From: Candidatus Moraniibacteriota bacterium
GTDB taxonomy: Bacteria; Patescibacteriota; Minisyncoccia; Moranbacterales; GCA-2747515
Direction: 5' to 3'
Length of the DNA stretch: 64,000 nt
NCBI GenBank assembly: GCA_046116545.1
Contig: CP175956.1
Location: 641,734-705,733 of the forward strand
The stretch's first letter is position 1, and each line of letters begins with the position of its first letter. Under the pieces are notes generated by a model that was not told the origin of the DNA, made no database searches, and was given only the letters and a program-made list of their open reading frames with translations. The translations under genes were made by a program, and so were the position numbers. Positions 1 through 62,877 of this stretch are shown piece by piece.

Positions 1-58
1 CATAGCATTTATATTCTGGATCAGCTTAATTATTGGAGTAGTCGTATTTTGGCCATTC

Positions 59-463
59 TTGCCGCATATGCCAATAGTTTTAAATTTTTTCTTACGAGAG
101 TATGAATTTGAGTGTAATATTTTGCGCGTGTTGGACATGGCAAGATTTGACACAAAAAGAAAGGATGGTTGGATGGCTCCACTTGAAATTTTGTATGCCG
201 TTGAAAAAATGTCTGGCAGGCAGCCAAGTGTAAGTGCTATTTATGTCACCTTGGGAAAATTGAGGAGAGAGGGTGCTGTTACAAGTAAGAAAGTTCCAGC
301 GGAATACTTAAAGAAGCCTCCAAAAAGAGCTAAAGTCAGCGGTGTCAGCTTGGCCTTCAAATTGGAAAATAATTCTAATTATAAACCTCGCAAGCCAAAG
401 TGGTTGCCAAAAGAGCAAAAGAAAGAAAGTAAGGGCGTGGTTGGCGGAGTTACAGCGCATTAA
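59..463 (+). CDS. hypothetical basic protein, possible winged-helix DNA-binding fold
   Basis: ORF of 134 aa; VTLGKLRREGAV-like segment and lysine-rich tail; start may be the internal M at 145; no family recognised. Confidence 0.3.
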   Translation: MPHMPIVLNFFLREYEFECNILRVLDMARFDTKRKDGWMAPLEILYAVEKMSGRQPSVSAIYVTLGKLRREGAVTSKKVPAEYLKKPPKRAKVSGVSLAFKLENNSNYKPRKPKWLPKEQKKESKGVVGGVTAH

Positions 464-490: not shown

Positions 491-600
491 TCCAGTCTCT
501 TTTTATTTGTCAAAATTTGTTGGCCCTATGGGATGAGGTTCGAACGGTTTTAAATTCAGTTTTGTAGTAGTATTCAAGACGTTTACTTGACAACTATACT
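491..600 (+). repeat. intergenic repeat module copy A (core 517-545 GTTGGCCCTATGGGATGAGGTTCGAAC plus conserved flanks)
   Basis: Near-identical to 1408-1515 and reverse complement of 47980-48090; 24-nt core shared with three further minus-strand copies; weak -35 TTGACA at 587-592. Confidence 0.85.
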
Positions 601-750: not shown

Positions 751-1335
751 ATGAAAAGACAGTTGACTGAGAAAGAAAAGAAGGTCATCAAAGGCTACAA
801 CCTTTCACCTCAAATTGAGCAAATAGTTTGGGATACTTGGAGCGAAGGCGAAAAACCAGCTGAAATGGGTTTTGTAAAAAAAATGGTTGGACAGCTCATC
901 GGGTTAGGTATCGTCTTTGGTAGTTCCGTGGCACTTTGGGTGAATTACCTCATGCCTGGAATTACCCAAATGCATGGCGTGTTGAATATAGTACGATTCT
1001 TTTTCTGGATAGTTCTTCCGTTAGTTGTGCTAATTTGTATTGTTCAGGTAGTCACGATCAACAAAAATGAGAAAGAGGCATTCAAAAAGTTCGCACTGGA
1101 TAGTTGGCAACAAAAAAGAACCATCATCCACAAAATTAGCAAAATAAATCAAGCTGCTTTGGTAATCGGTTTTATTCTTAATGGTTATTTTGTTTCAGCT
1201 ATGATGACTCTCGTTTGTTTTTTGGCTATATCTTTCATCAAAATTGGTATCAGATCAGATGTTCAAAAAATTATGGACAAAGTTGTCCCGCCGCAAAACG
1301 ACGATATCATCGAAGCGGAATACAGTTCAGTGTAG
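751..1335 (+). CDS. hypothetical integral membrane protein
   Basis: 194 aa, several hydrophobic helices; RBS AGGAGG 8 nt upstream; flanked on both sides by the repeat module. Confidence 0.5.
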   Translation: MKRQLTEKEKKVIKGYNLSPQIEQIVWDTWSEGEKPAEMGFVKKMVGQLIGLGIVFGSSVALWVNYLMPGITQMHGVLNIVRFFFWIVLPLVVLICIVQVVTINKNEKEAFKKFALDSWQQKRTIIHKISKINQAALVIGFILNGYFVSAMMTLVCFLAISFIKIGIRSDVQKIMDKVVPPQNDDIIEAEYSSV

Positions 1336-1407: not shown

Positions 1408-1515
1408 ACAGATTGATTTTTAATTTGCAAAAATTAGTTGGCCCTATGAGATTAGGTTCGAACGCTTTTAAATTCAGTTTTGAAGTAGAATTTAAGGTTA
1501 TTAGATTGACATTTA
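1408..1515 (+). repeat. intergenic repeat module copy B with embedded promoter-like TTGACA(1506-1511)-17-TAAAGT
   Basis: Aligns along about 110 nt with copies A and C; core at 1434-1463. Confidence 0.85.
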
Positions 1516-2593: not shown

Positions 2594-4030
2594 ATGGAAA
2601 TTATTATCAATAGGCAATATGGTAAATTAATTGCAAACCCAAGTACGAAAATAAAGTTCGATAATGTGGGCTATTATTCTGTTGTAGGTTTAAATAATAG
2701 TGGTAAGTCTTCTTTTTTACAATTCATATGTACTATTAAAGGCAATGTATTTTATTTGCCGGTAGAAAGATTGACTTTTGAGCAAAGTAGAAATGCACAA
2801 ATTGTAGATCTTAATCGGTGGATGCCTACTGTAAGAGCACAGATGCGAGGTGGACCAGTTAGTAGTACTCAATTTTTGCATGAAAGCGGAGAAATGGGTA
2901 CTCAGCTTAAAAATTTGATGCAGGCTATGTGGGATGAATTGGGTGATAGAGAAATGATTCGTGGTCAAGTTGCAAAAGATTGCAAAAGTTTACTGGAATC
3001 TGAGCCAGATACTCAAGGAAAAATTATTCAACTAATTGACCAAGATGAGGAGTCTCTTCCTTTTGCTCAGTTTGGATCTGGTTTTCGGGCATTATTACCA
3101 ATAATAATGGCTGTTAATTTAGATACTTATCCTGTGATATTAATTGATGAACCTGAACTTTCACTTGAGCCACGACTTCAAAAAAAAATAAAGAATTATT
3201 TGATAAGGAAGGCTCAAGAAAATAATAAATTAATTATTGTTGCTACACACTCTCATATTTTTCTTAATAAAAAAATTGTGCATATAGTTGGCCCAGAGGA
3301 GGTTAATAATGAAGATTCCTATATTGCAGAGAATATTATAGATATAGATGATAGGGGAGTAGTAACACAAGGTACACTAAAAGAAGATTTACCTGGATTA
3401 GTGTTTAATATGTTAGGTTCAAGTCCTTCAGATATTTTATTGCCAGACTCTATTATTATATGTGAAGGCTCAAGTGATCAAGTTTTTTTAGAAAAAATAC
3501 TTAATCTTAAAAACATTGATAATGTGGGAGTACATTTTGCAAGTGGTTTAGAAAAAATTCCATTAGCAGCTGAAGCAATTAAGCAAATGCTTAAGCCGGT
3601 TGGTGGGTACATGGAGATATATAAGCCAGTAATTTGTGCTTTATTTGATCGACCACAGTCAGACAAAAGAATCTTTATAGATAAAGTAGAGGAGCATATT
3701 GAATCAGATAATGATGGCAGGGTTGTGGTATTGGATAATAATGATTATACAGAACTTGAGTTTTGTTATCCTAAAGATTTAGTTATGAGATTGTGTGGTT
3801 CAGATTTTGATATCAAAAAATGGCTTGAAGATTGGAAGACGGCAAACAATAGGGAGCGGAATGAAGTATCTGTTAATGCAGGAAGTTTGGGTGAAGTAAC
3901 AAAGAGAAAATTTGCTCAAAAAGTATCAGATGAATTAACTAAAGAGCATTTGGAGAAAGCGAATGATGGTTTACAACAAATTATTTTATTGGTTGAGAAA
4001 GCAGAGTCTGTGCAAGAATTTTGGTCTTAG
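2594..4030 (+). CDS. OLD-family ATP-dependent endonuclease (ABC-type ATPase + Toprim), class 1-like
   Basis: Walker A GLNNSGKSS, signature-like FGSGFRALL, Walker B VILIDEPELSLEP, H-loop ATHSH; C-terminal Toprim-like IIICEGSSDQ and VVLDNND. Confidence 0.7.
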   Translation: MEIIINRQYGKLIANPSTKIKFDNVGYYSVVGLNNSGKSSFLQFICTIKGNVFYLPVERLTFEQSRNAQIVDLNRWMPTVRAQMRGGPVSSTQFLHESGEMGTQLKNLMQAMWDELGDREMIRGQVAKDCKSLLESEPDTQGKIIQLIDQDEESLPFAQFGSGFRALLPIIMAVNLDTYPVILIDEPELSLEPRLQKKIKNYLIRKAQENNKLIIVATHSHIFLNKKIVHIVGPEEVNNEDSYIAENIIDIDDRGVVTQGTLKEDLPGLVFNMLGSSPSDILLPDSIIICEGSSDQVFLEKILNLKNIDNVGVHFASGLEKIPLAAEAIKQMLKPVGGYMEIYKPVICALFDRPQSDKRIFIDKVEEHIESDNDGRVVVLDNNDYTELEFCYPKDLVMRLCGSDFDIKKWLEDWKTANNRERNEVSVNAGSLGEVTKRKFAQKVSDELTKEHLEKANDGLQQIILLVEKAESVQEFWS

Positions 4031-7953: not shown

Positions 7954-8214
7954 ATGAATTATTTTGTTTATATTTTGCACTGTTCTGATGATACGTTGTA
8001 TACAGGTATTACGACTGATGTAAGTAGGCGATTGGAAGAGCATAATGGCAAAGTTAAAGGTGCAAAATATACTAAAATGCGCCAACCTGTAAAATTGGTT
8101 TACTCTGCTGAGTTTTTGAATCGGTCTACTGCTAGTATTGAAGAATGTAGGATTAAAAAATTATCTCGTAAGCAAAAAGAATTGTTAATCAATCATAGTG
8201 CATGTATAATTTAA
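7954..8214 (+). CDS. GIY-YIG nuclease domain protein (UPF0213/YhbQ-like)
   Basis: FVYILHCSDDTLYTGITTDVSRRLEEHN matches the GIY-YIG signature. Confidence 0.8.
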   Translation: MNYFVYILHCSDDTLYTGITTDVSRRLEEHNGKVKGAKYTKMRQPVKLVYSAEFLNRSTASIEECRIKKLSRKQKELLINHSACII

Positions 8215-41528: not shown

Positions 41529-41882
41529 TTAGTTAACCTTCTTGAAGTTTACATTATACATTGGTTCGTATAAGTTATCATATGCATCACGAACCTCAAC
41601 TGTCTCACCATCCATCATAGTTGATAGGGAAATATCAGACATCATTTCTTGTAATGATTTTGATTCTCCTTTAAGTTCATCAAGTTTTTCCCAACGCATT
41701 CCTAGATCTCTTTGTGCGCTTAATTCATGTTGTTTTTTTGTTTCTCTCATAACATTCATCTTTTCAATCAATTCTTGGTATTCAGCATCTTGAGCTAAAA
41801 CATCTTTATATTCTTTGCGAATTTCTTTCATTTCTTTTTTAGTGATTTGAAATTCACTAAAGACTTCTTGTACATCTTTCAT
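41529..41882 (-). CDS. hypothetical coiled-coil protein
   Basis: 117 aa, charged helical. Confidence 0.4.
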   Translation of the reverse strand: MKDVQEVFSEFQITKKEMKEIRKEYKDVLAQDAEYQELIEKMNVMRETKKQHELSAQRDLGMRWEKLDELKGESKSLQEMMSDISLSTMMDGETVEVRDAYDNLYEPMYNVNFKKVN

Positions 41883-43275
41883 ATGTTTTTTTGTTTAATT
41901 ATTTTACGAACACAAAATCTATTATACCATACAATATCACTAAATAATAAACTTCAATTATAAAAACATTAAAGCGTGGGGAAGAGGTCTATAAGATAGT
42001 AGGTGTTGAGTATGTCCTAAATATAAAATAGTTAAAAACATAACTTTGAATCATTTTAGAATACAATGGATACTAGTCTAATACTATAGATATTAAATAT
42101 ATGTGGTATTTTTTTATCAAAATTAAAAGTGTAATAGATAAATATTTTTATGTCGCACAATATTTTAGTATATAAAGTTCATTGGGGAAGAGTTGTATTT
42201 GTAAGTATGCCTTTTATCAATCATTTTTCACTACTAATGCAGTATAAATTTATACTCATATATCATAGGATTCTAAACCATTATTAGTTAACTTTACATA
42301 AACTATAAATCATTTTTATTTTTAAAAAATATTTTATTATTAAGTTTGAATAAAAAATTATAATAAATATTAGCTAAATTAAAATCTAATTCAAAAAGAA
42401 ATGAATATGTATGTACATATGTATTATTTTATAATGTATCTATTTAGTGCTTAATTTGATAATTAGTAGCACTAAATACGCAAGTGACAGATTGACTGGT
42501 GTGTTTGTAAGAAAAAAGTAATACCTATATACCACTAATTTTTTACAAAACGTCTAAGGAGATTTCATGTATACGTTTTGAATAAAAAAGTAATACGTAA
42601 GTACCACTGAAATTGTATATTTTGCAGAGTTAAAAACTAACTAAGTTGTATAAACTCAAATTAACTATTTATAAAACTTCCATAGCATATCTGGGATTAA
42701 AAATTTTATAAATAATTGGATAAAAAACATTTTTAAAATACAAAATAATTTATAAATTATTTAAAATTTAATTTATTAAAATATAGATTTTAAGCTAAAA
42801 TTCATTATTTATCATAAGTAAGATAGTATATAGATCTCCAAAAACTAGAAATATTATATATTTTTGTTTAAAAGGTACTTTTTTGGCTTAAATAAAGGGT
42901 TTTTAATGATGGTATGTCGCATAAGATACATTGTGCGACATAGAATATATCATGAATTCATACCATTTAACCTAGTTCCTTGAATAAATTAGCTTGCTAC
43001 TGATACCTCTAAAAATCGCATTTGACTAACTTTTTAACTTAAAACCATCCATTATACTATTATATACTGGATGGTTTATGTATTTTTATTCTGATTGTTT
43101 ATGCAATCTCTGGGACATTCTTTTTGCTAATCCCATAATTGCAGGACTTAAGGTTCTAATCGAACCATCCGGCATCAGTACTTCAGGTTTTTTAATGCCT
43201 ACAAGTTTACGATTTAATAATCTGCGATGACCTAAGTTTTTTTCGTTATGAAATGCATAACCTCTCCCCTACTTT
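41883..43275. other. 1.4-kb ORF-free AT-rich region with internal direct and inverted repeats
   Basis: No ORF of 60 aa or more on any frame. Direct repeat AAAAAGTAATACSTAWRTACCACT at 42510 and 42587. TGGGGAAGAGKT repeat at 41979 and 42184. ATGTCGCAYAA motif at 42150, 42914 and 42928. Perfect 10-bp inverted repeat at 43043-43079. Confidence 0.6.
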
Positions 43276-43698
43276 TTACAGCATCATTTTAAATACATTA
43301 GTGTCATTTTTTTCGAAACCTTTTTGTTGGTAAAGTTGTATAGCTGCTTTCCTGGCACTATTACTAGTTAATTCTAAGCGACATAACTTCAACTTTTTAG
43401 CTTCTGATATCAAATAATCAATCATTGCACTACCTATCCCCTGTCGCAGATAAGATTTGTCAACAATAACGTCTTCAATAGTACCGACACTGCCTTGACT
43501 GGGAACCAATCGCACAGTAAGTGCACAAAAAGATATGATTTTACCAGAATCTTTTACTACAAAACAAATACAATGATCATCATAAACACATTGCCTCAGA
43601 TAATCTTTGGTAACGCAGTTACGTGTTAATTGCAAAAATAGTTTTTGAACATCTAAAAGGTTATCTTTTACAGCTAACCTTTTAACAATAATATCCAT
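43276..43698 (-). CDS. GNAT family N-acetyltransferase
   Basis: RQGIGSAMIDYLISEAKKLKL...ELTSNSARKAAIQLYQQKGF motif A/B pattern. Confidence 0.75.
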   Translation of the reverse strand: MDIIVKRLAVKDNLLDVQKLFLQLTRNCVTKDYLRQCVYDDHCICFVVKDSGKIISFCALTVRLVPSQGSVGTIEDVIVDKSYLRQGIGSAMIDYLISEAKKLKLCRLELTSNSARKAAIQLYQQKGFEKNDTNVFKMML

Positions 43699-47284: not shown

Positions 47285-47464
47285 TATACAACAACATCTT
47301 CAATAATTAACCATATAACTATACCACGAATCCAAATCAAAGGTCCATCTCTTCAGTAATTACTATCACGTTCGAATCCTATTGCCCCAACTTTTTTTAA
47401 ACAAACAAAAAACCCACCGAAGCAGATTTTCTGCTGGCAGGTTAATATGAATTGACTACATATC

Positions 47465-47920
47465 CTACAGATTTCCGCAACCAGGACATTTTCCATTGGC
47501 TGACTGCATATGTTCAATCGATCCATGAATTTCACATTCAGGTTCTGATACTTTATTATTTGGTGGTGTATACCGACAAGAGTAATATTCCACAGAAAAT
47601 GGTGGACTTAGTGCCTCAATTTCTTTAATTGCTTGTGCCTCATCATAGAAATCTCCAGCTCTTTGCTTCAACAAAACATCAGCCACTTCTCCATCCTTGG
47701 CAAGATTTCTTGCCTCTTCAGTAAGCTCAACAATAACCTCAGCAGTTGGGTCAACATATTCATCAACTGTTCCATCTTTCTTTTTTTCATAGACAGTAAT
47801 AACAGCATCCGATGACTCAATGGCAATCCCAAAATTAAGGATTGGTAAAATTTTACTCATAAAAAATTTTTCAATTTTACCATTCATCTCAGAACTTCCG
47901 CCCTTCAAAATAACTTTCAT
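47465..47920 (-). CDS. hypothetical protein with C-terminal CPGC zinc-ribbon
   Basis: 151 aa; AGGAGG RBS; transcribed from the promoter embedded in repeat copy C. Confidence 0.4.
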   Translation of the reverse strand: MKVILKGGSSEMNGKIEKFFMSKILPILNFGIAIESSDAVITVYEKKKDGTVDEYVDPTAEVIVELTEEARNLAKDGEVADVLLKQRAGDFYDEAQAIKEIEALSPPFSVEYYSCRYTPPNNKVSEPECEIHGSIEHMQSANGKCPGCGNL

Positions 47921-47979
47921 CAGTTTTTCCTCCTATACTTATTTATTTGACTCGAAATGAGTGTTTGTTAATGTAACTA

Positions 47980-48090
47980 ACAATTATACCTTAAATTCAC
48001 TAATATGTCAATCTCTTCTCAAGACCTTAAATTCTAATTCAAAGCTGAATTCAATACCGTTCGAACTTCGTCCCATAGGGCCAACAAATA
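47980..48090 (-). repeat. intergenic repeat module copy C with embedded consensus promoter (TTGACA 48006-48011, 17-nt spacer, TATAAT 47983-47988, minus strand)
   Basis: Reverse complement aligns along about 110 nt with copies A and B; core at 48040-48087. Confidence 0.85.
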
Positions 48091-48110
48091 AAACATGTCT
48101 TTTGTCAAGG

Positions 48111-48845
48111 TCATTTATAATTTTTTTCAGTAACTAGCAGGCCTGTATCATACATATGATTTTTATCATTTGCCCCATAAACAGATTCTTCTATTAATTC
48201 AAAAGTATCATAATCGACATCAGTCATAATACTATTTCCATAGATAATATTTGTATTGTCTTTATAATAACCATGGCCAATTTTTTCAAATGAATTTGGG
48301 TCTACATTCTCAACAATCTTTTGATAATAAAAAACCTTATCTTTATCTCTTGCGTATCCACAACAAAAAGACACCATCTCGAAAGAAGCATAATCTGCAT
48401 CAACTTCAAGACCTTTATAAAATATCTTTGAAGCATCTTTAGCATAATATCCTTTTAATGCTCTGAATGTCAAAGGATTAGCATTTATCAATATATTATT
48501 GTAATAAACCGTGTCTTTGTCTGCAAAATATCCATAACTACCAATTTCTCGAAATGTTTTTGGATCCAATCCTTCAAATGTTTTCATTGTAAACTTACTT
48601 CCACTCGAATTTACATTGCCTACACAAATTCGATCTTTTAAAATTTTAAATTGAGGGCCTTTTGCTGCTGCCTGAACAGAATAGCAGCGATCAAATATTT
48701 TACCAATAAAATCTCGAGTGCTGTATAAATCGTTTATTGCTTTATGAGGAAGATATTTTAAATTAATAAAAAACAATGTTATTAATAAAAAAATAGCCAA
48801 AAATAAAACAAATAGAACCCAAAATAAATATCTAACTTTTCTCAT
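48111..48845 (-). CDS. DKNYY-repeat family protein with N-terminal TM anchor
   Basis: Repeated DKD(K/T)VYY...NVDP(N/K)SF modules (DKNYY domain). Confidence 0.7.
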   Translation of the reverse strand: MRKVRYLFWVLFVLFLAIFLLITLFFINLKYLPHKAINDLYSTRDFIGKIFDRCYSVQAAAKGPQFKILKDRICVGNVNSSGSKFTMKTFEGLDPKTFREIGSYGYFADKDTVYYNNILINANPLTFRALKGYYAKDASKIFYKGLEVDADYASFEMVSFCCGYARDKDKVFYYQKIVENVDPNSFEKIGHGYYKDNTNIIYGNSIMTDVDYDTFELIEESVYGANDKNHMYDTGLLVTEKNYK

Positions 48846-48877
48846 AAAATAATTATACCAAAAATTGCCAGAATGAA

Positions 48878-49390
48878 CTATTTATTGCAATAAAAGTGTT
48901 CGAACTTCATCCCATAGGGCCAACAATTTTTATTAAAAATCTCTATAGCGGCATAAACAAATATCCGATCTTTTTCCTTTGCAGCTTCCGAGAGAAATTT
49001 GTAAGGCAACTGATGTTGTTGTTCTGCTCTACTCATATTCCTACTTAACCAATCTTCATGTACCAAGTGTGAAACTATTTCTACAAATTTATCATTGAAT
49101 GAACCACTATTATGACTTACTCTCAAAACCTCATCAAAAGCCACCTTGCTTCCATGCCATCTCTCATTTTTCCAATCTAAAGGTAAGTCACTATAACAAA
49201 GATTAGCAAGATCTACCTGATTGGTACCATTTTTTTTAATCCAATTAGAATCAAGTGTTGCCTTTATTCTTGTTCCGTTATTTTTTTCTTTGTATATCAC
49301 CTTAAATTTTTCGTGTACATTATCAGCAACAGTTATAATCAATCTTTCATAATCAGAGTCTTTGTGTTTATTCAAGACTTCCTTACTCAT
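48878..49390 (-). CDS. hypothetical protein (C-terminus encoded by repeat core copy D)
   Basis: 170 aa; last 12 codons ...WPYGMKFEHFYCNK are read through the repeat core. Confidence 0.4.
   Translation of the reverse strand: MSKEVLNKHKDSDYERLIITVADNVHEKFKVIYKEKNNGTRIKATLDSNWIKKNGTNQVDLANLCYSDLPLDWKNERWHGSKVAFDEVLRVSHNSGSFNDKFVEIVSHLVHEDWLSRNMSRAEQQHQLPYKFLSEAAKEKDRIFVYAAIEIFNKNCWPYGMKFEHFYCNK
48898..48926 (-). repeat. repeat core copy D (truncated module), followed by extended -10 TGgTATAAT 6 nt before the ATG of the downstream gene
   Basis: GTTGGCCCTATGGGATGAAGTTCGAAC on the minus strand; TATAAT at 48852-48857 (minus). Confidence 0.8.
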
Positions 49391-49463
49391 GCAACAAAAA
49401 AATAATTTTTACCTATTTAGTATATCAAAACTTGCCCAAAAACACTATCTATTCTAATAAAAC

Positions 49464-49489
49464 CGTTCGAACCTCGTCCCACAGGGCCA
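49464..49489 (-). repeat. repeat core copy E
   Basis: GTGGCCCTGTGGGACGAGGTTCGAAC on the minus strand, 3' of gene 49583-50122. Confidence 0.8.
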
Positions 49490-49582
49490 CTAGTTTTTTG
49501 AAAAATAAAGGGGTTAGAAAATATATTTTTCTAACCCCTGCTATTCTATTGTTCCTATGTTATTTTACAACAATTCTCTATT

Positions 49583-50122
49583 CTATATTTTTCCTGTTAG
49601 GAGGTAGAAGAGTCTTGAGATAAGTTCTCTTGGAATAAATATCCACGCATTTCTCGTCCATATTTGATCTGACAAATGATCATATGGAACTTTTTTAGTG
49701 GCTACAACCAAGGTATCAAGTCCTAACTTTTTAGCTGTCATTACACAACGCCAGCAATGCTGTGGGTGTGCAAGAATAATTGATCTACGCCACCCATTTT
49801 TTTCACAAATATCTTTTGATTGAGCAATCACTTCATAAGTATCAAGATATTTACCTTTTTCCTGATGTTTCCTGACAACTCCCGCCTTTGAAACATCATT
49901 GATACAATCAGCAATTTCCCATTGTAAAATTAATGGTACACAGTATTTTTTATGCACCTCTTTGGCAATATCTGCCAATTCTTCGTTACTTTTACCAGGA
50001 TCATCATTTGGTCGGTTACCAAAAGACTGTCCAATCAATACATCAGCTTTTTTCAAACAATCTTCAGAATCACTGGGCATATGCCACACAAAGAAACATT
50101 CAATCATTTTTTTAATAAACAT
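49583..50122 (-). CDS. DUF218 (YdcF/SanA-like) family protein
   Basis: ...VLIGQSFG... and ILAHPQHCWRC resembling the DUF218 conserved SxYHxxR region; strong RBS AGGAGG. Confidence 0.45.
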   Translation of the reverse strand: MFIKKMIECFFVWHMPSDSEDCLKKADVLIGQSFGNRPNDDPGKSNEELADIAKEVHKKYCVPLILQWEIADCINDVSKAGVVRKHQEKGKYLDTYEVIAQSKDICEKNGWRRSIILAHPQHCWRCVMTAKKLGLDTLVVATKKVPYDHLSDQIWTRNAWIFIPRELISRLFYLLTGKI

Positions 50123-50245
50123 AGCAAGCCTCCTTGATTGTTTATGAAGTTTTTTCTTATGCTATTAAATCAATAATAACTTGAAATATTAACATATTTT
50201 CATGATTTTGTAAAGACTACATGACTTTATTTCCTACATAAAATC

Positions 50246-50272
50246 GTTCGAACCTCCTCCCATAGGACCCAC
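50246..50272 (-). repeat. repeat core copy F
   Basis: GTGGGTCCTATGGGAGGAGGTTCGAAC on the minus strand; preceded by terminator hairpin 50283-50312 of gene 50328-50573. Confidence 0.8.
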
Positions 50273-50327
50273 AAATTTAAAACTGTCTATCTTAATTTTA
50301 AGATAGACAGTTTTTTACATTATTTAC

Positions 50328-50573
50328 TTAAGTATCACTAGTAGATGACTTAGTGCTTCCTATAGCTTTGCTAATTTTAGGATCCTCACCTTTTTTTGAC
50401 GTATAGGCTATATTTATAGTTGCCGTCCATTTCAGAGATTTTTTTCTATCAGTATCTTTTAATAAAATGTTGTGCCATTTTTCTTTTTCATCTTCTTTTC
50501 CATACAAAAAACCTAAATAAAGCATTATGCCAGTAACTATCAGAAAAAAGATTATGCCAATACCTATATACAT
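50328..50573 (-). CDS. small membrane protein
   Basis: 81 aa, N-terminal TM helix. Confidence 0.4.
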   Translation of the reverse strand: MYIGIGIIFFLIVTGIMLYLGFLYGKEDEKEKWHNILLKDTDRKKSLKWTATINIAYTSKKGEDPKISKAIGSTKSSTSDT

Positions 50574-50721
50574 TTATCGCCCCCTACATTAGCTAAAATA
50601 AATTATGGACATGTTAACTAAACAGGATTAAATAATATCAAACATCATATATCTTTGCAACAAAAAATAAATGGTCACATTATTAATGTGACCATTTATT
50701 TAAAGAATAATTCTTTAAAGT

Positions 50722-60901: not shown

Positions 60902-61936
60902 TTAAAACTGTTTCGTAAACCGTACATCACCTCCATGAAACAATCGTATATCATTAATCTTGTATTTCATCATTGCAAGTCGCTCCAATCCAAATCCCCA
61001 AGCAAATCCTTGATATTCACCTCTATCATAACCAGCTGCTTCAAATACATTTTGATGTACCATTCCTGCTCCACCCACTTCTATCCATCCTGTGCGTGAA
61101 CATGTAGAGCATCCAGCACCTCCACAGTTTGTACATGATATATCAAATTCAAATCCTGGTTCTACAAATGGGAAATAACTTGGTCGCAGTCTTGCCTTAA
61201 TTTCTTGTCCAAAAAACTCTGAGAAAAATGTCTCTGCAATATATAGAAAATTTGATACACTCACATCTTCACCAACAACCAATGCTTCAAATTGATGAAA
61301 AGTGTGTTCATGTGACGCGTCTGTTGCCTCATTACGGAAAACTCTCCCAGGTACAATCATTCTAAAGGGTGGTTTATGTTTTTCCATGTACCTTACCTGT
61401 ACACCTGAAGTCTGAGTACGCATTACTGTACCAGTTCCTTTCTTACGACCTTCCTCACGTGAAATCCAAAAAGTATCCTGCATATCTCGTCCAGGATGAT
61501 CATCTGGCATATTTATAGCATCAAAGTTATATGACTCACTCTCCAAGTCAGGTCCGTCAGCAATATCAAATCCCATTGATGTAAAAATATTTTCAATATC
61601 TCTTTGTACAATACTCAAAGGATGTAAATGCCCATGAGCATGTTTCGATCCAGGAGCAGATACATCTATCCACTCTTTTTTCTCATCAATAACACTCTCT
61701 AGTGTCATTTTTTTGTCATCTATCAAATGTTGTATTTCTTTTTTAGTTTCATTTGCCAATGGTCCGATTTCCTTTTTTTCTTCTACAGATAAGTCTTTCA
61801 ATCCTTTTAAAATCTCGTTAAAAGCACTCTTCTTACCTAGATAAGAAATTCTAATATCCTCGATAGCATCTAAAGTATCAGCACTTGAAATCTGCTCCAC
61901 AGCATTGTCTTTAATTTGTTGAATTTGTTCTTTCAT
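60902..61936 (-). CDS. pheS: phenylalanyl-tRNA synthetase alpha subunit
   Basis: Class II motifs (FRNE, GFAWGFGLERL), HPxRDMQD region. Confidence 0.95.
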   Translation of the reverse strand: MKEQIQQIKDNAVEQISSADTLDAIEDIRISYLGKKSAFNEILKGLKDLSVEEKKEIGPLANETKKEIQHLIDDKKMTLESVIDEKKEWIDVSAPGSKHAHGHLHPLSIVQRDIENIFTSMGFDIADGPDLESESYNFDAINMPDDHPGRDMQDTFWISREEGRKKGTGTVMRTQTSGVQVRYMEKHKPPFRMIVPGRVFRNEATDASHEHTFHQFEALVVGEDVSVSNFLYIAETFFSEFFGQEIKARLRPSYFPFVEPGFEFDISCTNCGGAGCSTCSRTGWIEVGGAGMVHQNVFEAAGYDRGEYQGFAWGFGLERLAMMKYKINDIRLFHGGDVRFTKQF

Positions 61937-61963
61937 AAAAAAATATTACCTATTGTCATTCTG

Positions 61964-62036
61964 AATTTATTTCAGAATCTAGGTTTAAGTTAATCTCATA
62001 GTAAATTTGAGATCCTGAGATAAATTCAGGATGACA
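61964..62036. repeat. inverted repeat upstream of pheS containing hairpin-GAATGACAA family copy 3 (61964-61990) and partner TTCAGGATGACA (62025-62036)
   Basis: TGTCATTCTGAATTTATTTCAGAATCT ... TAAATTCAGGATGACA nested inverted repeats immediately 5' of the pheS start. Confidence 0.7.
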
Positions 62037-62136
62037 TTTACTATATTAGCATACCACAAGAAAAAATAAAGGTTCTACTATTTATTTTTACAAAGCCATT
62101 TAACCGATCACACACTTCAAATAAGTTTCCAATGGT

Positions 62137-62236
62137 CTTTGCGAGCAGACGTGATATTTTGTGTATTTTGCGAAGCAATCTCTACAAATTTATTAGCACA
62201 CTTTCAAGATTGCTTCGTCGTACCTCCTCGCAAAGA
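62137..62236. repeat. nested inverted-repeat structure (outer TCTTTGCGAG/CTCGCAAAGA, inner GCGAAGCAATC/GATTGCTTCG) containing the 29-nt dispersed repeat
   Basis: Two concentric 10-bp stems; 3' arm identical to 4457-4485. Confidence 0.7.
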
Positions 62237-62359
62237 CGTTACTTTTGAATATTTTCTTACAACCACTCTTTAAGGTGTGAGAAATTACAAAGTTTTTATT
62301 GATTTCGCTAACATTTCGTGCTATTCTAGTTCAATCAAATAAAGTTCATTTAAAATGAG

Positions 62360-62536
62360 GTACTCGTAAATGAAAAGATTTACACCATACAGGAATAAAC
62401 TCAGATTCCCACAATTATGGGCAAATTATAAAGATGACTTTAATTCTTTCTTTGACCATACGGGACATATGAATACAAATGGCCATCGTGCATACGATAG
62501 ACTGAAACAAAAACGACGTATGAGAATGTGTTATAA
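62360..62536 (+). CDS. tiny basic ORF (58 aa)
   Basis: MKRFTPYRNKLRFPQLWANYKDDF...KRRMRMCYKKS; GAGG RBS; below the ORF-track threshold. Confidence 0.3.
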
Positions 62537-62560
62537 AAAATCATAAGGAGGTATCATTAT

Positions 62561-62740
62561 ATGTTTTCATTCTTAGAAGATGTAGCTGGTATATTTATTT
62601 TTTTAATAATGTGCATAGCATTTGGACTTGCAACAATTATAGAGACACTACATTTCTTTTGGAAAAGTTTTTTCACTAATCTTAGAATTATTAGAGAAAA
62701 TGCACGCACTGACAGCAATATACATCCTACATTATAAGGA
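62561..62740 (+). CDS. tiny membrane ORF (59 aa)
   Basis: Strong RBS AAGGAGGT 8 nt upstream; one TM helix. Confidence 0.4.
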
Positions 62741-62748
62741 GTTTAAAA

Positions 62749-62877
62749 ATGACACTACCTGTTGAAGTTTTTGTTTTACTTGGAATTGTAGCTGGAACAC
62801 TTCTCGTGAAGTCTTTCAAAACTTTTTGCAAAATTGCAAAAAAAAATAGATGCAAAAAAAAAGTACAAGGCACATAA
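62749..62877 (+). CDS. tiny membrane ORF (42 aa)
   Basis: RBS AAGGAG upstream; TM helix then Lys-rich tail. Confidence 0.3.
   Translation: MTLPVEVFVLLGIVAGTLLVKSFKTFCKIAKKNRCKKKVQGT

Follow-up and report, generated by a model that had tools for sequence, protein, structure and literature searches.

A repeat related to the 3' end of tRNA-Gln(CTG) separates single-gene units in variable arrays of Candidatus Moraniibacteriota: a candidate attachment site

The window, that is, the whole 64-kb stretch of DNA analysed here from a member of Candidatus Moraniibacteriota, an uncultured ultra-small CPR bacterium, carries two runs of small genes punctuated by copies of one short element. The right-hand array (47370-50573) is read from the minus strand and has its edge beside pyrG, where an 81-aa membrane protein gene (50328..50573) with its own promoter, no site upstream and a hairpin at 50281-50312 precedes site copy 1 (50238..50279, core 50246-50269). 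This site separates it from a weakly DUF218-like gene of 179 aa (49583..50122), equipped with a promoter-like TTTACA-17-TAATAT at 50214-50186 and an intrinsic terminator consisting of a 13-bp stem and a T run (49509..49539). Site copy 2 (49456..49499, core 49465-49488) is followed by a 170-aa gene (48878..49390) with an extended -10, TGATATACT, at 49419-49427. This open reading frame runs through site copy 3 (48889..48931, core 48898-48921), which therefore encodes its C-terminal residues (CWPYGMKFEH in the core). Next comes a DKNYY-family gene of 244 aa with an N-terminal membrane segment (48111..48845; extended -10 TGGTATAAT at 48852-48860), then site copy 4 (48050..48090, core 48059-48082), a flank of the type termed variant A below (48027-48053), gene g151 (47465..47920, 151 aa, C-terminal Cys cluster) and the recurrent terminator T1, CCAGCAGAAAATCTGCTTCGGTGGG plus a T run (47413..47437). 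The terminal site of the array is a tRNA-Gln(CTG) 3' fragment on the plus strand, GTTCGAATCCTATTGCCCCAAC (47370..47391), which starts at G53 in the T-loop and includes the 3' end; its T-loop side is joined to the promoter region of a PIF1-like helicase gene.

The gene labels given in an earlier note on this DNA held for the DKNYY protein (Pfam, E=1.2e-33), whereas the DUF218-like assignment is weak (20 bits, below the 27.6-bit cut-off; E=6.7e-4) and the remaining genes have no Pfam match. The note had also placed a distinct promoter after each copy. Judged from the sequence, each unit does have a sigma-70-like promoter with conserved hexamers at 17-nt spacing, and most have a terminator; the promoter of g151 matches the consensus at 12/12 positions (TTGACA-17-TATAAT at 48011-47983), and those of the other units are weaker or extended -10 matches. 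ECF-sigma or sigma-54 promoters do not fit the spacing. The description of the units as small accessory genes needs qualification, since g151 has 89 homologues across Parcubacteria-type bacteria.

The left-hand array extends beyond the window. Contig L017 equals window positions 1-379 at 100% identity and carries two copies of the element upstream, so that this array has four sites. The third (511..554, plus strand, core 522-545) has a variant A flank and a promoter, TTGACA-17-TAAGAT, at 587-615, and precedes a plus-strand gene for a 194-aa membrane protein without Pfam match (751..1335). A further plus-strand site (1429..1472, core 1440-1463), again with a variant A flank and with a promoter at 1506-1534, precedes two genes encoding small membrane or secreted proteins (1580-1897, 1958-2281); a terminator comes after them at 2315-2342.

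The six window copies of the 24-nt core GGYCCTRTGRGANKARGTTCGAAC described previously were all recovered by a pattern search allowing up to three mismatches (0 expected). The core was absent from all 100 dinucleotide-preserving shuffles of the window, and a profile search revealed no further strong copy there. The palindrome GTTCGAAC, one of two in the core, occurs in the window in these six copies only (0.35 expected). All six are intergenic and on the same strand as the flanking genes, and across 18 sequences 49/49 copies are intergenic with a single orientation per locus; the core is thus placed non-randomly with respect to genes, as the earlier note had supposed. Searches of phage and plasmid collections gave no element match, a single viral-contig match being a chance hit inside a coding region. 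Matches in high-GC metagenome sequences (L009, L012, L013, L016 and L022) lie in coding or unrelated contexts and were dismissed, because chance matches to 18 specified bases are expected when so large a collection is searched. A DNA uptake sequence would be more frequent and less clustered than this element.

The modules share one order: a terminator, a short A/T-rich spacer ending in GTTGG, the core ending in GTTCGAAC, and a promoter. The conserved block, GTT-core-nnTTTT, measures ~41 nt and is thus longer than the core. Among 45 copies the core averages 90% pairwise identity; the figure falls to 50-59% over the neighbouring 12-24 nt and to 30-37% beyond, so that conservation tapers gradually into the flanks and the element has no sharp ends. 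Two promoter-bearing right-flank variants, A (GAATTC-N12-GAATTT) and B, and two terminators of about 50 nt, T1 and T2, each recur before unrelated genes in several genomes. By eye, the variable core positions (13, 14 and 16) showed no correlation with the A or B flank. Neither an inverted repeat spanning the site nor a stable hairpin was found. For the core by itself and for the whole module on either strand, predicted fold energies were no better than those of shuffles (z +1.1 to -1.3), and the consensus fold of 13 variant-A copies had no covariation term; the RNA folding of the element raised by the earlier note thus yielded no signal. No Rfam family matched the element at the gathering threshold on the window and 17 loci, or at a relaxed threshold on 47300-50700, the only matches in these searches being terminator hairpins and real tRNAs.

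The earlier note had overlooked the relation of the element to the tRNA-Gln(CTG) 3' end and its flank, and the anchoring of arrays at that gene. In reverse complement, the element resembles the tRNA 3' end from the T-loop onward, reading GTTCGAAC-CTCAT-CCCATAGGGCCAAC followed by the sequence found downstream of a real tRNA-Gln gene. The sequence before the sites (terminators T1/T2 and AAAATTNGTTGG) is likewise the same as that after tRNA-Gln, and in relatives T1 precedes element-type sites as well as tRNA-Gln. The similarity is partial: the abundant core shares only GTTCGAA, CCAAC and the downstream flank with tRNA-Gln, is 5 nt longer than its 3' end and differs in the centre, and no tRNA with a 3' end equal to the core (GTTCGAACCTCATCCCATAGGGCCA) was found. 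A tRNA-Sec-like 8/5 reading of the core reverse complement is considered a coincidence, as there is no matching 5' half and variants break the CCA.

Among the relatives compared (Candidatus Moraniibacteriota contigs, all from metagenome assemblies), five (L001, L003, L005, L015 and L031) contain an intact tRNA-Gln(CTG) with the array lying 3' of it and the sites arranged as direct repeats relative to the tRNA, and g151 adjoins tRNA-Gln(CTG) in relatives. L031 probably comes from the source species, given that its FtsX is also encoded on the contig carrying the 151-aa protein of the window. The window itself retains the 3' fragment only, and ARAGORN detected neither a tRNA nor a tmRNA in it. 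Taken alone, the fragment matches a tRNA-Gln profile weakly (E=6); the syntenic copy in L002 agrees with it at 21/22 nt and covers profile positions 51-73 (E=0.008). A fragment that starts exactly in the T-loop and is joined to unrelated DNA is present in the window and in L002, with a decayed form in L008; integrases acting on tRNA genes classically leave such a break. An alternative reading of 47370-47391 as a tmRNA 5' end (GGGGCAATAGGATTCGAAC) was rejected, the stretch being the reverse complement of the tRNA-Gln 3' end, syntenic with L002, with no room before the helicase gene.

The distant relative L029 has, beside tRNA-Gln, a 906-bp unit with one gene, flanked by a 44-nt direct repeat whose first 19 nt are identical and begin in the last 5 nt of the tRNA; at the distal end there is a core-like GTTCCAACATCGTCCCACAG. 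The neighbouring genes of L029 are on opposite strands, and the site there is oriented with the tRNA, independently of these genes. In L019 it runs against, or is independent of, the adjacent genes.

The units between sites are single genes of 0.4-1 kb, and their content and order vary between relatives, again as previously suggested. Cassette content differs between the window and L008 at the locus from the PIF1 helicase to pyrG, and the cassettes downstream of ftsX, between it and tRNA-Gln, all differ in L003, L005, L025, L028/L035, L031 and L034; L028 packs 11 intact sites into 12.4 kb. Zinc-ribbon, DUF218-like and 194-aa cassettes recur from site to site in other arrays. The 194-aa unit, taken from core to core (513-1474), is found in L028 (10986-11896) at 85.6% identity with the flanking cassettes outside the alignment, and the DUF218-like cassette lies in the L005 array between ftsX and tRNA-Gln (88.8% identity over 774 nt). 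The L005 orthologue of site copy 1 has a decayed core with the gene conserved and the downstream promoter still about 95% conserved, which indicates that the core is dispensable for expression.

Homology between relatives breaks inside the element. L015 and L025 share about 690 nt at 100% identity, from GTTCGAAC through the promoter, g151 and the terminator to ...AAAATAGTTGG; beyond this point L015 continues into the tRNA-Gln body and L025 into an element core and a further cassette, and the left flanks are unrelated too. Since the identical unit spans GTTCGAAC to the next GTTGG, the core is tied at least as closely to the promoter that follows it as to the gene upstream of it, the partner given in the earlier note. 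The two junctions sit differently: one maps at or within GTTCGAAC, the other inside GTTGG, so that a single crossover point offers no clean explanation. L003 and L023 are ~97% identical as far as GTTCGAACAC and unrelated after it. Repeats can cause mis-joins in metagenome assemblies; yet both arrangements recur in independent, more divergent genomes.

The reading that best suits these observations taken together is that the copies of the element are attachment-type recombination sites that bound promoter-bearing single-gene cassettes in hypervariable arrays anchored at tRNA-Gln, an interpretation to which we give an even chance. The module would then be related to an attachment region at the tRNA-Gln(CTG) 3' end and would delimit independently transcribed cassettes in this lineage of Candidatus Moraniibacteriota (CPR/Patescibacteria), with small promoter-gene-terminator units being inserted, deleted and moved through recombination within the site. 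The tRNA-Gln 3' end would serve as the primary chromosomal site, and new units would consequently pile up beside the tRNA with one site copy per junction. The core may be the protein-binding part, and the recombinase would be encoded elsewhere. The window holds two such arrays, and the one at 47-50 kb terminates next to the PIF1-helicase gene in a tRNA-Gln 3' fragment that has been displaced. The cassette-array reading of the earlier note is thereby borne out for the array and the variation of its units; as to mechanism, we infer that exchange is site-specific and enzyme-catalysed, and the exact point of strand crossing is likewise deduced.

In agreement with the earlier note, no integrase or recombinase was found in the 64-kb window, nor within about 10 kb of any array examined in relatives. 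This applies to Pfam scans of 59 open reading frames from the window and the other loci, including the array genes and 30 other window ORFs, and to precomputed Pfam labels of the genes around arrays in relatives; no integrase gene or remnant lies inside any array examined. Large serine recombinases were encountered only near the g151 homologue of L030, a locus without the element. Core sites of tyrosine recombinases typically have inverted binding arms around a 6-8 bp spacer, and the site described here has none.

The lack of a recombinase near the arrays is also what would be expected if the element were a conserved boundary module between transcription units, serving insulation or co-regulation through a regulator or nucleoid protein on the core, with shuffling as a by-product of homologous recombination, for instance after DNA uptake, and no dedicated recombinase. 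We regard this explanation as less likely than attachment-type sites but as a serious rival, and much of the architecture agrees with it: the element always lies between a terminator and a promoter, its two palindromes are of a kind frequent in protein-binding sites, and cores that stay ~90% identical between diverged flanks fit selection on a binding site. The recurrence of the flank variants and terminators before unrelated genes supports a boundary role and also supplies enough homology for RecA-type exchange, and homology-driven exchange predicts junctions at two places in shared sequence, as in L015/L025; most junctions, however, offer only about 41 nt of homology. An operator or activator site would be expected to keep a fixed promoter position and a matching orientation, whereas the distance from core to -35 varies (8, 14 and ~41 nt in measured copies) and the site is uncoupled from adjacent genes in L029 and L019. 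The decayed core of L005 beside a conserved promoter and gene points the same way. A boundary function further leaves unexplained why site and flank mirror tRNA-Gln, why arrays end at this tRNA and why the tRNA breaks exactly in the T-loop, where 7-8 nt are shared.

A non-autonomous mobile repeat (MITE-, REP- or Correia-like) that lands in intergenic regions with promoter or terminator activity while the genes stay put would account for a multi-copy, lineage-restricted, intergenic element with subfamilies, and would fit the class of 'putative mobile promoters' (PMC3488235). Such a repeat is nonetheless very improbable here, as the element has no terminal inverted repeats, target-site duplications or stable hairpin and fades gradually into its flanks; its copies cluster in arrays and, within a locus, all point strictly the same way, entire gene units reappear between sites in other surroundings, and the relation to tRNA-Gln would go unaccounted for. 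Action at the RNA level, be it as a signal in the 3' UTR or for processing, as a handle resembling tRNA or as a small RNA transcribed from either strand, is the most remote of the readings: the T-loop-like GGTTCGAA and the co-orientation with window genes are suggestive, a C-to-T change at core position 3 would keep a G-U pair on the sense strand only, and flank variant A has a weak AU-rich hairpin with a few compensatory changes, but Rfam, ARAGORN and the folding comparisons returned nothing in its favour, and the core, which comes after intrinsic terminators and before the next promoter, should be poorly transcribed.

CPR/Patescibacteria combine very small genomes with an epibiotic way of life and few mobile elements that can be recognised, and the acquisition and turnover of their accessory genes are poorly understood. 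Returning to attachment-type sites, it is possible, and we propose it tentatively, that some of these bacteria have a previously undescribed integron-like gene-capture system, in which cassettes carry a roughly 100-nt attachment module with its 24-nt core and a recombinase presumed to be encoded in trans inserts them beside tRNA-Gln(CTG) or into resident sites. If so, a short searchable sequence bounding exchangeable single-gene units and tied to one tRNA would offer a handle on CPR gene turnover, allowing hypervariable loci to be located in metagenome-assembled genomes and a 'cassette' gene pool to be defined. The cassette genes found here encode mostly small membrane, secreted or unknown proteins, and a trans-encoded capture system would be a source of strain-level variability of small surface and accessory genes in reduced genomes. 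It would also point to a recombination activity that can be searched for, and perhaps to a genetic tool for a group that is hard to manipulate. Should homologous recombination be responsible instead, the arrays would still be a clear case of promoter-plus-terminator units shuffled in a streamlined genome.

A close parallel is with integron cassette arrays, among them sedentary chromosomal integrons and attC clusters that lack an integrase, which likewise consist of co-oriented, mostly small genes of unknown function with one recombination-type site between each; close relatives differ in which cassettes they carry and in what order, and a given cassette turns up in more than one array. Integron cassettes are promoterless and depend on a common promoter, and the tyrosine recombinase IntI is encoded with adjacent attI and Pc, whereas no IntI integrase, attI or Pc promoter lies near the arrays described here, each cassette comes with a promoter, and usually also a terminator, of its own, and the array is anchored at a tRNA gene. 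The attC site is a structure-conserved imperfect palindrome of 57-141 nt, with inverse core RYYYAAC and core GTTRRRY, that folds as single-stranded DNA. The present site is instead ~41 nt of conserved sequence without hairpin potential; as read from the letters, the attC boxes are absent and GTTGGCC and GTTCGAAC are not inverse copies, which upholds the earlier statement that the element is not an attC site. The pdif/Xer-dependent modules of Acinetobacter plasmids are similar in being small, in having short conserved recombination sites and in not encoding the recombinase. Their sites have the dif 11-6-11 organisation and are inversely oriented around the modules; the site studied here is unrelated to dif in sequence, forms direct repeats and is chromosomal and tRNA-linked.

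Putative mobile promoters comprise near-identical promoter-bearing intergenic sequences before unrelated genes, within and between genomes (Matus-Garcia et al., PMC3488235). They constitute a descriptive class without a mechanism, whereas the element analysed here also has a terminator-side part, a tRNA-related core and cassette junctions. Genomic islands of the Islander type (PMC4383910), which are tRNA-anchored, built by serial integration and provided with partial tRNA repeats, and the tRNA-anchored islands remodelled by tycheposons in Prochlorococcus (bioRxiv 10.1101/2020.12.28.424599) resemble our arrays in several respects: a hypervariable region lies 3' of a specific tRNA, there are direct repeats with a likeness, in our arrays a partial one, to the tRNA 3' end, the more recent insertions adjoin the tRNA, the island contains or ends in displaced tRNA fragments, and the genome of the host is a streamlined one. 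The units in our arrays differ in being single genes without integrase or replication modules, and many intact sites per array are possible with no integrase remnants; moreover, what is repeated is a conserved 24-nt core, which has only the T-loop heptamer, the final nucleotides and the flank downstream in common with the tRNA. An intact tRNA at one end, as expected of such islands, is present in L001, L003, L005, L015 and L031 and in the distant L029.

The 24-nt core that the earlier note described between genes was recovered six times in the window, each copy with at most two mismatches to that consensus, and never in 100 shuffles; its embedded palindrome, GTTCGAAC, occurs in the window only in these six copies. 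All six are intergenic and oriented like the genes that flank them, the earlier note having given a constant orientation relative to the upstream gene: 522 and 1440 on the plus strand, in the left-hand array at the 5' end, and 48059, 48898, 49465 and 50246 on the minus strand, in the array between a PIF1-like helicase gene and pyrG. L017, one of the contigs from other assemblies compared with the window (L001–L035), is 100% identical to positions 1–379 and supplies two further copies, so that the left-hand array has four sites. Alignment of the copies extended the conserved block beyond the core, to GTT-GGCCCTATGGGAnGArGTTCGAAC-nnTTTT. Pairs of copies (45 copies, 18 sequences) are on average 90% identical in the core and 50–59% in the adjacent 12–24 nt, and no more alike than background farther out. 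An intrinsic terminator with a T run usually lies 5' of the block, and one of a few recurring, promoter-bearing flanks lies 3' of it, among them variant A (GAATTC-N12-GAATTC, then TTGACA-17-TAnnnT) and variant B (TTATTGCAATAAAT, then an extended -10); terminator, core and flank together are referred to here as the module.

The opposite strand of the site reads GTTCGAAC-CTCAT-CCCATAGGGCCAAC-AAATTTTG, where a T-loop (G53-TTCGAAC) leads into sequence that finishes like a tRNA 3' end, the likeness ending within the T-loop. Intact tRNA-Gln(CTG) terminates the array in five related contigs (L001, L003, L005, L015 and L031), with its 3' end toward the array and the sites as direct repeats relative to it. 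The sequence preceding the sites is also that found behind the tRNA gene, namely two recurrent terminators, T1 (CCAGCAGAAAATCTGCTTCGGTGGG) and T2 (AAAAGCAATTCACTCAAATGAGAGAATTGC), and AAAATTnGTTGG; beyond GTTGG it continues either as the tRNA's own GCTGGTAGGA-TTCGAAC-CTACG... or as the element's CCCTATGGGAyGArG-TTCGAAC-GGTTTT. The helicase–pyrG array of the window terminates at 47370–47391 in GTTCGAATCCTATTGCCCCAAC, a tRNA-Gln 3' fragment from G53 fused to the promoter region of the helicase gene. By itself this fragment is a weak profile match (E=6); the syntenic copy in L002 matches 21/22 nt of it and aligns to tRNA-Gln profile positions 51–73 at E=0.008, and L008 carries a decayed version. 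The fragment and the element cores are the sole tRNA-related sequences in the 64-kb window, in which ARAGORN called neither a tRNA nor a tmRNA gene and no RNA family passed the Rfam gathering threshold. L031, with an intact tRNA-Gln and its own array, is probably from the source species, because its FtsX protein is also on record on the 1.29-Mb contig, annotated Candidatus Moraniibacteriota, that carries the window's 151-aa protein (gene g151, 47465–47920, minus strand); if so, the window fragment is an extra, displaced copy.

Comparison among relatives, proposed in the earlier note as a check for presence or absence of individual gene-plus-repeat units, revealed different cassettes at the same loci. 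A stretch of about 690 nt that spans promoter, g151 and terminator T2, from GTTCGAAC to ...AAAATAGTTGG, is shared by L015 and L025 at 100% identity; beyond it L015 enters tRNA-Gln, and L025 an element core followed by a variant-A promoter and a different gene. The opposite flanks are unrelated, and the two cores differ at variable positions 14 and 16. Similarly, L003 and L023 are about 97% identical over the 3' end of a pentapeptide-repeat gene and the core to GTTCGAACAC, and unrelated beyond. The cassette of the window's 194-aa gene (751–1335, plus strand; 513–1474 from core to core) recurs at 85.6% in L028, the alignment stopping before the neighbouring cassettes, that of the DUF218-like gene (49583–50122, minus strand) recurs in L005 within an ftsX to tRNA-Gln array, and one MAG has two copies of a zinc-ribbon cassette, whose homology extends from one core as far as the following GTTGG. 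The helicase–pyrG interval holds five small genes in the window versus three different genes and one site in L008. Downstream of prfB-ftsE-ftsX, cassettes differ in every genome examined (L003, L005, L025, L028/L035, L031 and L034). L028/L035 carries 11 or more sites and roughly 17 genes there, and L031 and L034 have a conserved far flank of tRNA-Gln, HD_4, PycTM and TruB; two relatives with 69–80% FtsX identity have no array at this locus. Informative alignment ends lie within 45 nt of a core in 31/154 cases, versus 3.7% of bases, an enrichment that is due in part to the fast divergence of intergenic DNA, and the high-identity pairs are the stronger evidence. All relatives compared are metagenome assemblies, in which repeats can produce mis-joins; the key arrangements were each seen again in independent, more divergent genomes.

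The distant relative L029, an 831-kb Parcubacteria-type contig, shows the arrangement most clearly. Behind its tRNA-Gln(CTG) comes a unit of 906 bp whose single gene runs on the opposite strand. A direct repeat of 44 nt bounds this unit; the first 19 nt of the repeat are identical and start in the last 5 nt of the tRNA (CCAAGCTAGTCAAATAATT), and a core-like GTTCCAACATCGTCCCACAG sits immediately internal to the distal repeat. Next to it is an 885-bp unit, which carries the g151 homologue on the other strand and ends in the same 75-nt module. Site orientation is thus fixed relative to the tRNA and genes within the units point either way, a pattern that would be expected of attachment-site repeats and not of a promoter or terminator element. 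A related core in L019 (41% GC) also lies between two genes on the opposite strand.

The best-supported proposal, which we rate at roughly even odds, is that the module is an attachment-type recombination site bounding exchangeable units. Promoter–gene–terminator units would then be inserted, deleted and exchanged at the sites, so building up and altering the arrays. The primary site would be the tRNA-Gln 3' end; in a circular cassette, the terminator-side and promoter-side flanks, both conserved, would form the two arms of the site, and the core would be its protein-binding part. No integrase or other recombinase was found in the window, in agreement with the earlier note's statement on integrase, or near any array in the array genes and gene tables of relatives; the core has no inverted arms of classical tyrosine-recombinase sites, and the two junctions of the identical L015/L025 unit fall in different parts of the site. 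A less likely but serious rival is that the modules are conserved boundaries shuffled by ordinary homologous recombination, which the repeated 50-nt terminators would permit; at the T-loop breakpoint of the tRNA fragment only 7–8 nt are common to both partners, which favours an enzyme-catalysed or microhomology event.

A role in expression is addressed by core to -35 spacing, which varies by copy (8, 14 or about 41 nt) and argues against a position-dependent activator site, and by L005, where a decayed core precedes a DUF218-like gene that, like its promoter, is still about 90–95% conserved; the core is therefore dispensable for expression. Little weight falls on a MITE-like reading, as the element lacks terminal inverted repeats and target duplications, or on an RNA one, since the folding raised in the earlier note gave no signal (no better than shuffled sequence on either strand, a consensus fold without covariation support, and no Rfam family even at relaxed thresholds). 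The phage and plasmid collections gave no match.

Among known systems, the array works like an integron array, so that the likeness first proposed holds for behaviour and not for membership: there is no IntI, attI or Pc, cassettes carry their own promoters, and attC structure is absent, as are attC-type inverse cores, consistent with the initial view that the element is not a canonical attC. The arrays also resemble tRNA-anchored islands formed by serial integration, in which each insertion is set off from the next by a partial tRNA copy (Islander, PMC4383910; tycheposon-remodelled islands, bioRxiv 10.1101/2020.12.28.424599), but a unit here consists of a single gene and lacks an integrase, and what repeats is a conserved core related, not identical, to the tRNA end.

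Cassette genes are mostly small and without a Pfam match; several encode signal peptides, lipoboxes or membrane segments, and others DKNYY, NUDIX, rhomboid, pentapeptide-repeat or zinc-ribbon proteins or an ECF sigma factor. The earlier description as small accessory genes does not suit all of them, since g151 has 89 homologues. When one genome per species was scanned with a degenerate pattern, the core turned up almost exclusively in Candidatus Moraniibacteriota MAGs (CPR/Patescibacteria), often several times per contig; a metagenome scan contributed further low-GC contigs that carry arrays, along with a few high-GC matches that are unrelated and due to chance. No account of such arrays in CPR bacteria emerged from full-text literature searches.

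A longer core relative with its own conserved flanks, GTTGGC(G/T)GGyCCTGTGGGACGAkGTTCGAAC(r)GAAATTGGwAA, occurs in L011 (1320–1370; contig 54% GC), between a terminator and a TGGTATAAT promoter near tRNA-Trp, and in L019 (6805–6850; 41% GC), which suggests that the site family extends beyond Moraniibacteriota. Some sites (L008 3770–3830; L028 8915–8940 and 10550–10575) are preceded by an extra motif, TTCGAAC/TTCGATG-ATTG-TCCTATCAGTTGG, which resembles the 3' part of a further tRNA-Gln-like sequence, in sense orientation and directly adjoining the core; these may be compound or rearranged sites. A 170-aa ORF (48878–49390, minus strand) reads through site copy 3, which encodes its C-terminal residues (CWPYGMKFEH in the core), and joining of the site to this gene may have replaced its original 3' end. 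In L030 (400–13100 of a 1.09-Mb contig), a g151 homologue lies between two large serine recombinase genes, near a phage CRI-type replication gene, a restriction-modification pair and a small terminase, in what looks like an integrated element; neither the element core nor tRNA-Gln is present in this region.

Directly after the left-hand array lies an AAA_21/AAA_15 ATPase gene (2594–4030, plus strand), AbiEii-like and of a type typical of defence systems, and a few kb past it a stand-alone GIY-YIG nuclease-domain gene of 86 aa (7954–8214, plus strand). A very AT-rich 1.4-kb stretch without an ORF of at least 60 aa (41882–43276) is probably the replication terminus region, because GC skew turns from positive to negative at about 40–44 kb and gene orientation converges there; it separates the two arrays, each of which runs in the direction of replication and of the genes, and L002 has about 1.75 kb of extra genes and one element copy inserted beside its equivalent. 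Finally, a 34-nt stretch at 62206–62239, within a 900-nt ORF-free gap (61936–62834), is 94% identical to L002 7528–7561, just upstream of the helicase gene, and looks like another short dispersed repeat.
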